NCBI GenBank assembly: GCA_963822445.1 | Contig: CAWGHO010000003.1 | Coordinates: 512,001-576,000, forward strand | Direction: 5' to 3' | Source: an uncultured Acidobacteriota bacterium | Lineage (GTDB): Bacteria; Acidobacteriota; Thermoanaerobaculia; Gp7-AA8 | DNA: 64,000 bases | Position numbers and translations under genes: made by a program | Part shown: positions 38,281 to 53,287 of the stretch, piece after piece | Layout: each line of letters opens with the position of its first letter | Position numbering within the stretch: the first letter of the stretch is position 1 | Notes under the pieces: model-generated | Database searches by the model: none | What the model was told of the DNA's origin: nothing | Seen by the model: the letters and a program-made list of their open reading frames with translations, nothing else

Positions 38281-39192
38281 ATGCAGGTCATCCTCTCGGG
38301 GAGCCTCCGGCACTTTCCGCCGGCCGAGCTCCTCACCTTTCTCTCTTCACGGGGTATGAGCGGGACGCTCGACTTCGAGACGGCGGGCAGGCGGACGCGG
38401 GTCTTTTTTCAGAACGACCGGATCGTCTGGGCGGAGTCGAACAAGACGACCGACGTCGCCGAGGCCGTTCTCGACGCGTTCGAATGGCCTTCCGGAACGT
38501 TCACCCTTCTCGATTCCACGGCCTTGCCGGATGGGGTAGCCGCGGTTTCGATCGAGCTGGCGACGCTCGTCGCCGAGGCGACGAAACGCGCCGCGGCGGT
38601 CTCGCCTTACCAAGATGCGGCGATGTTCCGCGTCGTCGAGAACCCGCTGCAACAGCAACTGAGCATCACGGCCGACGATCTGAAGATGCTCTTCCGCCTC
38701 TCGTCGCCGAAGTCTTTCAAGGATCTCGTCGCTGAAGTGGGCCTGCCGCCGAAAGAGCTCGGCGAGCGCCTCAAGAAGCTCGAAGATGCGGGACTGGTTC
38801 ATCACAACGATCCCGACAAAACCGATCCGGCCCTGAAGCCCGGCAGAAAGCGGACGCTCGTCGGATCGCTCACACCTGACGGAGCAGTGGACAACGTCTT
38901 CCCGCTGCTCGACGCCGAACAGACCATCGGCCGCGTCCCCACGAACAACATCGCCCTTCCCGACGCGAGCATCTCCTCGACCCACGCCCGCATCAGCCGC
39001 ACGCCGGAAGGCTTCTTCATCGAAGACCTCCAGAGCCGCAACGGCACGTTCGTGAACGGCGAGAAAGTCGACTCGAAACGCCTCCTCACCGACGGAGACC
39101 TGATCCGCCTCGGCAAGGTCATCATGACCTTCAACGTGGCCCGGGAAGGGAAGGCTGGCGAAACGACGCAGCCGGAGGTGAGGGTGGTGTGA
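38281..39192 (+). CDS. DUF4388-like N-terminal domain + FHA domain protein (303 aa)
   Basis: LSGSLRHFPPAELLTFL...SGTL...VFFQNDRIVWA...FEWPSGTF; FHA IGR..SISSTHARI..DLQSRNGTFVNG. Confidence 0.88.
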   Translation: MQVILSGSLRHFPPAELLTFLSSRGMSGTLDFETAGRRTRVFFQNDRIVWAESNKTTDVAEAVLDAFEWPSGTFTLLDSTALPDGVAAVSIELATLVAEATKRAAAVSPYQDAAMFRVVENPLQQQLSITADDLKMLFRLSSPKSFKDLVAEVGLPPKELGERLKKLEDAGLVHHNDPDKTDPALKPGRKRTLVGSLTPDGAVDNVFPLLDAEQTIGRVPTNNIALPDASISSTHARISRTPEGFFIEDLQSRNGTFVNGEKVDSKRLLTDGDLIRLGKVIMTFNVAREGKAGETTQPEVRVV

Positions 39193-39277
39193 GGTTTCGA
39201 GGTTACGAGGTTACGGGGTTCCGAGGAGGAACCCGGTTTTCGACCTCGCAACCCCGTAACCCCGCAACCCCGGAACC
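39191..39277. repeat. Inverted pair of 8-nt tandem arrays filling the intergenic gap
   Basis: GAGGTTTC GAGGTTAC GAGGTTAC GGGGTTCC ... CCTCGCAA CCCCGTAA CCCCGCAA CCCCGGAA CC-ATG. Confidence 0.8.
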
Positions 39278-51400: not shown

Positions 51401-51989
51401 GACCGGAATCGCCGTCCAGTTCCGCTATGCCTTCGTAACCGGGGCGAAGGGCCTGCACAGCATCGAGATCACCGATCCGTCGAAACCGCGGCTCGCGGCG
51501 ACGCTGCCGATCAAAGACGCCCGCAATCTTTACGTCGCGCGCACGTATGCCTACGTCGCCGGCGGCAAAGAGGGGCTGGTCATCGTCGACGTGGAGAAGC
51601 CGGAGAAGCCGTTCGTCGATCAGGTCTTCCACGACGATCTGCATGACGTGAACGACGTGAAAGTGGCCGCGACCAACGCCAGCGTCTTCGCGTACGTCGC
51701 CGATGGCGAACATGGTCTGAAAATTCTCCAGCTGACGTCGCCCGAATGGACGCCGACCTACGCCGGCTTCAGCCCGCGCCCCGCGCCGCGCCTGATTGCC
51801 AAACGCCACACCCACGGTCCGGCCCTGGCCATCTCCAAAGGCCTCGACCGCGATCGCGCCGTCGACGAGAGCGGCTACCAGGTCTCGATCTTCAACCGCA
51901 TCGGCGCCCGCCCAATGACGTTGCCCGAAATGCAGCGCCTCTACCTGCGCAACGGACAGATCTACACGGTGAGTGAGGTCCCGAAATGA
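48442..51989 (+). CDS. Decaheme cytochrome c + LVIVD-repeat propeller (~1180 aa), at least six frameshifts in 49295-50545
   Basis: Joining ORFs 48442, 48884, 48804, 49915, 50183 and 50574 gives CESCH, CTDCH, CGTCH, CTACH, CMSCH, CADCH, CQDCH, CYACH, CSGCH, CGSCH, then YAY(I/V)A...GL.(I/L)VDV repeats. Confidence 0.82.
48518..48550 (+). repeat. Heptamer tandem (ACTCATC)x~4.7 inside the 5' coding region
   Basis: ACTCATC ACTCATC ACTCATC GCTCATC ACTCA, encoding [10 protein letters not shown]. Confidence 0.8.
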
Positions 51990-53287
51990 AACGCGTGTTG
52001 CTCATCTCAATCATCTGCGCCGCAGCAGTGGGTATCGCGCAACAACCCACCCAGCAACCCAGCAACTCAGCAACCCAGCAACCCAATAAATACATCGGCG
52101 TTGCCACCTGCGTCAGCTCCGGCTGCCACGGCTCCACCGAGCCTCTCAACGCCTCCCGCGTCCTGCAGAACGAGTACTACACCTGGCTGAACAACGATCG
52201 CCATTCCCAGGCATACAACGTCCTCTTCAACGATCGCTCCGCGCGGATTGCGAAGAACATGCGCCTCAGGAAGCGCGCGTATGAAGAAGCGGCATGTCTC
52301 GATTGCCACACCACCAACGTTCCCGCTAGCGAAGTCGAAGGGCGCATCGATCCCGAAGACGGGATCCAGTGCGAGGCCTGTCACGGTCCGGCCAGCGGCT
52401 GGCGCGCTGAGCACACCGAGGAAGGGTGGACGCATGCGCAGTCCGTCGAGCGGGGGATGATCGATCTCACCAGCGTTCCTGTGCGCGCCCACATGTGTCA
52501 CCGCTGCCATCTCGGCAACGCGCAGAAGGAAGTCGATCACGAGCTCATCGCCGCCGGGCATCCGCTGCTGGCCTTCGAGCTCGACAACTTCACCGAATCA
52601 ATGCCGCCGCATTGGACGCCGAATCGAGCCACGCACGGCGTGAATGCCTGGGCCGTCGGACAGGTGATGAAGTTCCGCGACTCCCTCGGCAACCTCGCCC
52701 GTCACGCGCGCGGCAACGAGTGGCCCGAGTTCAGCGACATGAGCTGCTACAACTGCCATCACACGCTCAAAGGCAGCGAATGGCGTCAGCGTCGCGGCTG
52801 GCCCGATCGCGCCGGCCTGCCGTCGTGGTCCCCGCAACATTGGGCGATGTTGCGATTGCTGATCGGCCGCGTGTCCCCGCAGTCGCGGGATGAGCTCGAC
52901 GGACTGGTCGCGCAGATCGCGCGCGGAGTCGCGCGCATGAACGAGCCCGCCGCGGTCGCCGCGAACGCGGATCGGGCGCGCAGCATCGTTCACAACCTGG
53001 TGCCGCGCTTCGAATCGCAACGTTGGACCGACGCGGAAATCCGCGCGATCATGACCGCCATCGCCAGCGACCGCGCCTTCCTCGAGGCTGCCGACGTGCA
53101 CGTCGCGGAGCAATCCGCGCTGGCTCTGCAGAGCCTCGCCACGTCGCTCACCCGTCGCAATCCGCGCCTGCTGCGCGGCCCGATGATGCGCTCGATCGAC
53201 GCGCTGTTCGAAGAGGTGAAGAGTCGCGATGACTTTGATCCGGCGAGGTTCGGCGAGAAGCTGGCGGCTGTGAAAGCGGCCATTTAA
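51986..53287 (+). CDS. Exported multiheme cytochrome c (c554-like): four CxxCH plus one CX4CH
   Basis: Signal peptide; YIGVATCVSSGCH, CLDCH, GIQCEACHGP, CHRCH, CYNCH; ATGA coupling. Confidence 0.88.
   Translation: MKRVLLISIICAAAVGIAQQPTQQPSNSATQQPNKYIGVATCVSSGCHGSTEPLNASRVLQNEYYTWLNNDRHSQAYNVLFNDRSARIAKNMRLRKRAYEEAACLDCHTTNVPASEVEGRIDPEDGIQCEACHGPASGWRAEHTEEGWTHAQSVERGMIDLTSVPVRAHMCHRCHLGNAQKEVDHELIAAGHPLLAFELDNFTESMPPHWTPNRATHGVNAWAVGQVMKFRDSLGNLARHARGNEWPEFSDMSCYNCHHTLKGSEWRQRRGWPDRAGLPSWSPQHWAMLRLLIGRVSPQSRDELDGLVAQIARGVARMNEPAAVAANADRARSIVHNLVPRFESQRWTDAEIRAIMTAIASDRAFLEAADVHVAEQSALALQSLATSLTRRNPRLLRGPMMRSIDALFEEVKSRDDFDPARFGEKLAAVKAAI
52043..52085 (+). repeat. Octamer tandem (GCAACCCA) just after the signal peptide
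   Basis: GCAACCCA GCAACTCA GCAACCCA GCAACCCA, within QQPTQQPSNSATQQPN. Confidence 0.75.

Follow-up and report, generated by a model that had tools for sequence, protein, structure and literature searches.

A conserved acidobacterial gene cluster linking a cytoplasmic flavin/iron-sulfur protein to 25 haem c motifs: a candidate two-module, cyclic nucleotide-regulated route for quinone-independent electron export

Can a bacterium send electrons from its cytoplasmic reductants towards the cell exterior without passing them through quinones, and place this flow under the control of a second messenger? The question is raised by a locus of an uncultured member of the Acidobacteriota (class Thermoanaerobaculia; assembly GCA_963822445.1, 6.0 Mb in three contigs, 94.7% complete). 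It lies within a stretch of 64,000 nucleotides (contig CAWGHO010000003.1, positions 512,001 to 576,000), called the window here, whose numbering is used throughout. Eight + strand genes, g1 to g8, span positions 38281-53287, and neighbours among g3 to g8 overlap by 4-20 bases (Table 1). The original prediction for this DNA had listed eight same-strand genes, the last six overlapping, with a defined set of domains and 25 haem c motifs. All three statements hold: the domains are returned by Pfam, or by a structure model in the case of g6, and the motifs add up as 10 CXXCH in g4, 10 CXXCH in g7 and 4 CXXCH plus 1 CX4CH in g8, counts that are identical gene by gene in five intact relatives. We consider the chances evenly poised that the cluster encodes quinone-independent electron export by two modules under the regulation of cyclic nucleotide monophosphates (cNMPs).

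The part of the cluster at the inner membrane turns on g3, which is present in a single copy in the genome. The protein has five hydrophobic segments, two of which bear the same motif, W74-x3-H78-x13-H92 on transmembrane segment (TM) 3 and W246-x3-H250-x13-H264 on TM5, with S115-G116-x-x-G119 on TM4 between them. None of the 10 sequences compared, from Thermoanaerobaculia, Terriglobia and Nitrospira, departs from the W/H or SGxxG motifs. By the positive-inside layout, H78 and H250 would lie towards the cytoplasm, H92 and H264 towards the periplasm, with one His pair near each face, and g3 is probably a di-haem b carrier. A protein of this kind is already in print: in the passages of He et al. 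(2017; PMC5566968) on the predicted PCC3 and PCC4 clusters, the 'IMP' has five TMs, SGxxG on TM4 and W-x3-H-x13-H on TM3 and TM5, is likened to the ferric-reductase domain and is suggested to hold two b-haems. Compared by these described features, g3 carries the exact IMP signature.

The candidate cytoplasmic partner of g3 is g2. Its iron-sulfur (FeS) end matches Fer4_11 (4.5e-9), is encoded directly upstream of g3 and contains 16 Cys in four ferredoxin-type motifs, conserved without exception in the 10 sequences compared from four phyla, a pattern that fits four [4Fe-4S] clusters. That this FeS protein acts on g3 is best supported by a natural fusion, in which one open reading frame (ORF) of 821-825 residues unites two cNMP domains, Fer4 and a five-TM protein with both W-x3-H-x13-H motifs. 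The fusion was found in 3 of the 3 Acidobacteriota loci fetched for the check, two of which (L100 and L101) come from metagenome-assembled genomes labelled Pyrinomonadaceae; two of these fusion proteins were checked with Pfam. At the other end of g2 the flavin domain is YpdA/TrxR-like, scores far under the cut-offs of those families and has no CxxC. The domain is accordingly no disulfide reductase, and a role as electron donor to the FeS clusters is likelier.

What feeds the partner differs from lineage to lineage. The N-terminal input is Pyr_redox_3 in Thermoanaerobaculia and in the Nitrospira locus L082, whereas the partner in the Terriglobales locus L056 (L056:17759-20053(-)) has NuoG-like Fer2_4 and NADH-G 4Fe-4S domains instead of the flavin domain, together with three cNMP stretches; the partners at L042 and L060 have no recognised N-terminal input module. 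The input modules appear to have been swapped between lineages. On the far side of the membrane, both TMs of g4 flank all ten of its CXXCH motifs, and the decahaem part should therefore be periplasmic and both FHA domains cytoplasmic. For the inner module alone, we regard a path from a cytoplasmic reductant through FeS clusters and haem b to periplasmic haems as quite probable. With the His pairs and the fusion, this inner half of the path that had been predicted, from NAD(P)H by way of flavin, FeS and haem b as far as the periplasmic haems, is supported; its continuation to the cell surface fares less well, as set out below.

Table 1. Positions and content of the cluster genes, the intervening repeat and the fusion genes found in relatives
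Feature	Position	Strand	Content	Basis
g1	38281-39192	+	DUF4388, ArsR-like helix-turn-helix (HTH) and FHA, 303 aa; probable regulator	Pfam
g2	39278-41651	+	Cytoplasmic; Pyr_redox_3 (FAD/NAD(P)H), 2 cNMP-binding domains, predicted 4x[4Fe-4S]; ~791 aa in relatives	Pfam, Cys motifs
Hairpin	41652-41744	no strand	Between g2 and g3; (GCAGAAT)n, 32-nt arms, perfect	
g3	41772 (or 41688)-42602	+	5-TM inner-membrane protein; probable di-haem b carrier	Motifs
g4	42599-44890	+	FHA, TM (158-176), 10 CXXCH, TM (560-578), FHA	Pfam, motif count, topology
g5	44887-46545	+	Exported; two HbpS/GlcG-like domains	Pfam
g6	46536-48461	+	N-terminal Ig-like domain, disordered linker, 18-strand outer-membrane beta-barrel	AlphaFold2 (AF2), Foldseek
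g7	48442-51989	+	Decahaem cytochrome with C-terminal LVIVD beta-propeller; ~1180 aa in relatives	Pfam, motif count
g8	51986-53287	+	Exported pentahaem cytochrome; cytochrome c554-like region	Pfam, motif count
Fusion ORF	L100:2580-5054	-	cNMP-Fer4-IMP; followed by FHA-heptahaem cytochrome gene	
Fusion ORF	L101:3140-5602	-	cNMP-Fer4-IMP; followed by FHA-heptahaem cytochrome gene	
Fusion ORF	L102:4195-6669	-	cNMP-Fer4-IMP; followed by FHA-heptahaem cytochrome gene	

The Pfam matches behind these assignments are DUF4388 (2e-13), HTH_5 (1.4e-5) and FHA (4.7e-21) in g1, Pyr_redox_3 (2.9e-38), two cNMP_binding stretches (6.1e-42) and Fer4 families in g2, two HbpS-like stretches (6.4e-24) in g5, and LVIVD repeats (7.3e-24) behind the multihaem N-terminal part of g7. 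In the mechanism that we infer from the domains, motifs, topology, synteny and fusions, including its cofactor binding, flow direction, gating and the g8 and g7 steps, NAD(P)H would reduce the FAD of g2, whose four [4Fe-4S] clusters would hand the electrons to the pair of b-haems that g3 would stack across the membrane, and these in turn to the ten c-haems of g4 at the periplasmic face. The soluble pentahaem protein g8 would probably shuttle electrons on to the decahaem-propeller protein g7, which may act with the barrel g6 and the HbpS-like g5 on an acceptor. The two cNMP domains, which separate the flavin part of g2 from its FeS part, probably gate the flow, and g1 and the C-terminal FHA of g4 may add a lineage-specific phospho-threonine layer. 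Such gating would make sense because outward flow from NAD(P)H would drain both reductant and membrane potential.

Outward flow is favoured because the variable N-terminal modules are all cytoplasmic low-potential inputs, and because, by standard bioenergetics, flow inward to FeS clusters or NAD(P)+ would run uphill in redox terms and against the membrane potential. The opposite direction has been proposed for related systems, which speaks against our reading: He et al. (2017; PMC5566968), in the passages on the IMP clusters, drew an inward model with electrons flowing to quinone, and the account in a preprint on Ferrigenium straubiae (bioRxiv 10.64898/2026.01.22.701106) links Fe(II) oxidases to quinone. 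Applied to this cluster, extracellular or periplasmic donors such as Fe(II), Mn(II) or reduced humics would feed g3 and, through it, a quinone or the cytoplasm. We think this improbable, given not only the energetics but also a cytoplasmic partner that is a low-potential FeS/flavin protein with a NuoG-like input in some lineages, Pfam and equivalog-model scans that found no quinone-site family in g3, and hosts that, judged by their names, belong to soil heterotroph lineages.

The proposed control differs in constancy between its two kinds of domain. The cytoplasmic partner keeps its cNMP domains, one to three of them before Fer4, in 7 of the 7 architectures examined. Both copies in the g2 of the window have an intact phosphate-binding cassette FGE..R-T-A (FGEMSLISGRRRTAT and FGEAALFSDAGRTAT) and would, by this cassette, be ligand-competent; the expression G-E..R-(T/S)-A also matches the partners at L014, L016, L042 and L056. 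FHA domains occur at both ends of g4 in Thermoanaerobaculia, at the N-terminus only in Nitrospira L082 and Pyrinomonadaceae L100 (and in L101 and L102 by tblastn only), and not at all, by Pfam, in the g4 of Terriglobia L042, and in the planctomycete L060 the tblastn match starts at g4 residue 203, past the N-terminal FHA. FHA domains that bind phospho-threonine conserve the residues GR, SxxH and NG, all of which are present in the FHA of g1 and in the C-terminal FHA of g4. Control through FHA would be lineage-specific; of the joint control by cyclic nucleotide and phospho-threonine signals that had been suggested, the former is retained and a general role of the latter is not.

Signalling-type domains (cNMP, FHA and DUF4388-HTH) that are built into redox proteins would also suit a redox sensor, in which the haem proteins report the periplasmic or extracellular redox state through g3 and g2 and the output leaves through the cNMP, FHA and HTH domains. 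The HbpS family includes sensor partners, as in the HbpS-SenS pair, and EfgA/GlcG (6bws, 8.7e-9) is the best PDB sequence match of g5. We nevertheless give a sensor very little credence: 25 c-haems, four FeS clusters and a flavin exceed what a sensor needs, cNMP domains receive a signal and do not produce it in a cluster that lacks a cyclase, and most of the distant versions lack the FHA domains and g1 (the latter present in 1 of 31).

The cluster recurs outside this genome, with the order g1 to g8 unchanged in 6 of 6 relatives' loci (17-20 kb each). The barrel protein g6 is present in 19 of 24 genomes of the same genus (a tally that includes the unpublished genome G002) and in both of the 2 genomes from a second family of the order, and was absent from the 14 genomes searched in the remaining ten families of order and class. 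When one genome per species was scanned with an 11-row barrel alignment, a barrel relative turned up at 580 loci; of these, the best 80 were kept and split into 17 close (L019-L035) and 63 distant (L036-L098) loci. These best 80 of 580 cover all major Acidobacteriota classes, Planctomycetota, Verrucomicrobiota, Omnitrophota, Nitrospira and Binatus, and include no proteobacterial locus. By a word-indexed search the barrel has 7809 relatives at E <= 1e-5 among 8000 proteins scored, and its family comprises 1590 representative clusters at 50% identity (E <= 0.001). Where source names were given among the 120 best barrel and 120 best g7 matches listed, they read 'hypothetical protein' or 'LVIVD repeat'.

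The close loci with 8 kb on both sides (n = 10) contain g2 to g8 in every case and g1 in 9. The distant loci separate the genes into two groups. A g7 homologue lies directly 3' of g6 in 48 of the 49 distant loci with enough downstream DNA, in several phyla, and among the 31 distant loci with 8 kb on both flanks, searched by tblastn with Thermoanaerobaculia queries, g5 was found in 27, a g2-like gene in 18, g3 and g4 in 13 each, g8 in 12 and g1 in 1. The count for g3 is an underestimate, because a profile search of 5 genomes with no g3 in their 10-kb flanks recovered the family in 4, three times on the same contig, 1.3-4.1 kb past the fetched flank. From this pattern of presence across loci, we divide the cluster into an outer core, g5-g6-g7, and an inner module, g2-g3-g4, often accompanied by g8.

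The outer core contains the barrel, for which no Pfam family was found at E <= 0.01. Its AF2 model, built on a 44-row alignment (mean local confidence, pLDDT, 86.5; pTM 0.76), consists of an Ig-like sandwich (residues 17-88), a disordered linker (~101-133) and ~18 long strands (149-640), in agreement with the earlier assignment of the product starting at 46536 as an outer-membrane barrel. Foldseek against the PDB places AlgE first (E 1.2e-16, target-normalised TM-score 0.64-0.72, 10-12% identity), followed by the 18-strand porins MOMP, OccD/K, chitoporin and ScrY. Between phyla the adjacent g7 shares 51-60% identity and keeps every one of its ten CXXCH motifs, and its residues 461-728 resemble ExtM of Geobacter (2.2e-26, 92.3 bits against a cut-off of 800). 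It has no PDB sequence match at E <= 0.01, and in the ESM Atlas its haem part retrieves nothing but generic multihaem clusters; for g8, the PDB sequence search returned weak cytochrome c554/c552 matches only.

A number of observations weigh against the proposed export route. At the inner membrane, g3 scores 18.6 bits (E 0.002) against Pfam Ferric_reduct (PF01794), under the cut-off of 28. Modelling of the oxidoreductase with the membrane protein, which the original prediction had called for, lends weak support to their pairing: a score of 0.60 was obtained for g3 together with the FeS domain, with at least 89% of contacts shared between runs and a partner pLDDT of at least 70, while none of the 3 controls exceeded 0.00; that mark is reached by 58 of 80 solved complexes and by 2 of 110 mismatches. 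In the signalling part, the cassette expression has no match in the partners of Nitrospira L082 or planctomycete L060, and at the N-terminal FHA of g4, 6 of 6 sequences of the Thermoanaerobaculia order read ALEH and TGT in place of SxxH and NG. Cyclases or kinases, whose co-occurrence the original prediction had put forward for checking, do not accompany the genes: none lies within the cluster, and the genome's four class-III cyclase domains are all away from it. At the outer membrane, g7 has a plain signal peptide with no lipobox, and its AF2 model (of the L014 orthologue, 22-row alignment) has an overall pLDDT of 54, with only the propeller confident and the haem domain unmodelled; in Foldseek it retrieves generic propellers only. 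An MtrB-type sheath around a decahaem needs about 26 strands, and with an 18-strand, AlgE-like g6 a haem crossing of the outer membrane is unsupported. Among public RNA runs, none was found to contain the stretch, and no expression data were found.

With this barrel, and with a g7 that bears no lipoprotein signal, the predicted surface step of the path is not supported in the form proposed, and we find electron passage across the outer membrane rather doubtful. Two readings of the g6-g7 pair are possible: a slender segment of g7 or the linker may enter the barrel, or the barrel may be an acceptor channel that works with a periplasmic g7 enzyme. The second would leave the inner module as proposed and end the electrons in the periplasm, where g7, helped by g5, would act as a reductase and g6 as a substrate-specific channel that lets the acceptor in or the product out, with no chain of haems across the outer membrane. 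The AlgE-like fold of g6 and the substrate porins among its next matches (OccD/K, chitoporin, ScrY) suit this alternative, as do the missing lipobox of g7 and its identity across phyla, which is unusually high for a cytochrome and is enzyme-like more than wire-like. The middle of g7 also resembles a protein of the Geobacter selenite/tellurite cluster, ExtM, at a score (92 bits) far under the cut-off of 800. Yet neither g7 nor g5 showed an identifiable catalytic motif or cofactor site, and the tight adjacency of g6 and g7 is the pattern of a porin-cytochrome pair. The barrel of Cyc2 is small, and this fused porin-cytochrome, which is named in He et al. (2017), shows that narrow barrels can pass electrons. 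In descriptions of the Ext cluster, its porin-like member ExtI is discussed as a possible channel. Taking both sides together, a periplasmic end point seems to us unlikely overall, if a serious alternative to export.

A further point against export in this particular organism is that its copy of g2 and g7 may be dead, given the frameshifts in both genes as assembled. The earlier description had the content of the cluster right and overlooked that these two genes are not open throughout. In g2 the frame changes at ~41062 through one extra G (GGG in the window, GG in three relatives), and g7 falls into at least five frame pieces through eight single-base insertions relative to three intact orthologues (at 49296, 49430, 49992, 50094, 50103, 50150, 50209 and 50540). 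Each gene is a single frame in 5 of 6 relatives' loci; in the exception, L018 (G003:C2:4368500-4388400, a four-contig assembly of the same genus), g2 has at least five frame pieces and g7 one shift, at positions other than those of the window.

We interpret the frameshifts of the window as probably consensus errors of long-read assembly, because all nine changes are insertions, because the frame pieces stay 61-87% identical in amino acids to the L014 orthologue, because the assembly is of the few-contig, long-read type, and because L018, another few-contig genome of the genus, is frameshifted elsewhere in the same two genes. The breaks in L018 make a technical cause likelier for such shifts in few-contig assemblies generally. 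The errors would have to be local, since three window ORFs of 1736, 2295 and 2362 residues are intact, and a real pseudogene therefore keeps some probability. Public sequencing runs included none with this strain (best word share 0.11). Four soil or sediment runs contained short contigs of relatives only, some of them without the extra base at 49293-49295, 50150 and 50543; these repeat the pattern of the relatives and do not decide whether the window's frameshifts are real.

How does the cluster compare with systems already described? The closest is PCC4, also a predicted cluster. In its published description, an FeS (pfam13247-type) gene lies directly 5' of the gene for the IMP in Subgroup II, as g2 lies 5' of g3, and a porin gene is accompanied by several multihaem cytochromes, 10-haem and 5-haem proteins among them. 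The periplasmic cytochromes described there have 4, 5 and 10 haems and those here 10, 10 and 5; here one decahaem protein carries a beta-propeller and the other two FHA domains, flavin/NAD(P)H and cNMP domains are present (the 'other redox genes' of PCC4 being compared by description only), and the hosts are Acidobacteriota and other soil phyla. The Ferrigenium preprint (10.64898/2026.01.22.701106) describes a trio of an FHA-nonahaem cytochrome, a five-TM protein and a [4Fe-4S] protein that is expressed in all conditions tested there; in its account, FHA had not previously been reported with multihaem cytochromes, and no redox motif was found in the five-TM protein. By this description it shares with our cluster the three-gene inner module and a cytosolic FHA on a membrane-anchored multihaem cytochrome, and the inner module therefore probably reaches the Proteobacteria. 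The cytochrome there has nine haems, one TM and one FHA, that of g4 ten haems, two TMs and two FHA domains, and a barrel, propeller, HbpS partners, cNMP and flavin go unmentioned in the preprint's account of the trio.

With MtrCAB, MtoAB and PioAB the cluster shares a barrel gene beside a decahaem gene and periplasmic haem carriers. The barrel, however, is 18-stranded and AlgE-like, not Mtr-type, and neither cytochrome reaches the cut-off of the models applied: the DmsE/MtrA model TIGR03508 gives 24.2 bits on g8 (cut-off 192) and PF22113 gives 24.3 bits on g7 (cut-off 30), with no MtrC/OmcA lipoprotein; an absence of MtrA/MtrB-like sequence had been reported earlier. There is also no CymA/NapC quinol dehydrogenase here; the input would be NAD(P)H and FeS through a b-haem protein. 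In this respect the likeness is to NOX, FRE and MsrQ, in which two b-haems sit on two helices with His pairs 13 residues apart, a spacing that g3 shares (H-x13-H), and electrons run outward from a cytoplasmic flavin/NAD(P)H site. Unlike these, g3 has five TMs and scores under the Pfam cut-off, the flavoprotein is TrxR/YpdA-like and not FNR-like, the predicted four FeS clusters and two cNMP domains stand in between, and the acceptor would be a multihaem chain. Similarly, g6 shares its 18-strand fold with AlgE but lies outside any Pfam family and among cytochrome rather than polysaccharide genes, and the cluster differs from Geobacter ExtHIJKLMNOPQS in not reaching the ExtM equivalog score and in having no Rieske domain, whereas the Geobacter set includes a Rieske protein (ExtO) and a cytochrome b (ExtP).

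A second preprint (bioRxiv 10.64898/2026.05.27.727921) describes EET1-EET4, syntenic and transcribed porin and multihaem clusters of peat Acidobacteriota and Verrucomicrobiota, with EET1 as a 'porin-scaffold-cytochrome system' of Terriglobales/UBA7540. EET1, known here by its description, may be the same as g5-g6-g7 or different; the words propeller, LVIVD and cyclic nucleotide are absent from the main text of that preprint. Literature searches on 'HX13H' returned He et al. (2017) alone, those on cyclic nucleotide-binding, multiheme cytochrome and FHA domain no such cluster beyond the Ferrigenium preprint, those on Thermoanaerobaculia with multiheme and on LVIVD with heme nothing on the cluster among the papers listed, and those since 2018 on PCC4, multiheme and porin one paper, which mentions PCC4 once. 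No component of the cluster has been characterised so far, and the statement that no characterised system has this composition remains correct, with parts of it already in print: the IMP signature of PCC3/PCC4 and the idea of a porin/multihaem/FeS cluster (He et al., 2017), the FHA-cytochrome trio of Ferrigenium and the EET1-4 clusters. As far as the literature searched goes, four points are new: the IMP is tied to an NAD(P)H flavoprotein and to cNMP domains that are constant; cNMP, FeS and IMP parts occur in a natural fusion; the barrel is AlgE-like; and barrel, decahaem-propeller protein and HbpS-like protein form a near-obligate core across phyla.

In a broader and tentative view, to which we assign less than an even chance by a wide measure, the cluster would be a two-membrane counterpart, in bacteria, of NOX/FRE: a cNMP-gated valve that bypasses quinones and connects donors at the level of NAD(P)H or ferredoxin through FeS clusters, two b-haems and ~25 c-haems to an acceptor outside the cell or in the outer membrane. 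Soil Acidobacteriota, Planctomycetota, Verrucomicrobiota and Nitrospirota would commonly carry it, and might use it either to dump electrons in a regulated way or to supply minerals or organic matter with reductant. The partner genes of the barrel recur in dominant soil phyla. If the export reading is true, these bacteria export cytoplasmic electrons without quinones and under second-messenger control, a route that neither the present models of respiration in soil and peat nor those of the redox cycling of iron and organic matter contain. In the natural cNMP-FeS-IMP fusion there is a single polypeptide on which the idea could be tested directly.

Several features within and around the cluster are recorded here for completeness. 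A 20-mer of the hairpin between g2 and g3 has 63 forward and 61 reverse matches in the genome, mostly as inverted pairs (control pattern 0), and because of these the hairpin is a dispersed repeat resembling repetitive extragenic palindromes that lies inside the operon and is not specific to the cluster; its footprint at the equivalent site is visible in the translations of the relatives L013 and L015. Just 5' of the cluster, at window 34842-38206, are a PSCyt2/PSD1 (DUF1549/DUF1553) gene and a DUF1501 gene, which we considered as members and rejected because the DUF1501 match, the only one of the two queried, is patchy in relatives: it lies 5' of g1 in L015 and L018 and not in L013, L014, L016 or L017. 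Directly 3' of g8, at window 53293-54648, is a Na+/H+ exchanger gene (PF00999, 4.9e-68) that also adjoins g8 in L014 and L018 and had no match in L013, L015, L016 and L017, where it was queried; that it compensates the charge or pH of electron export is pure speculation. Further upstream are the three giant ORFs (window 9705-32400), of which the one tested has Big_9 and cadherin-like domains. Six small ORFs of similar C-termini are interspersed among them, and the one of these tested has a Phage Tail Collar domain (1.5e-27).

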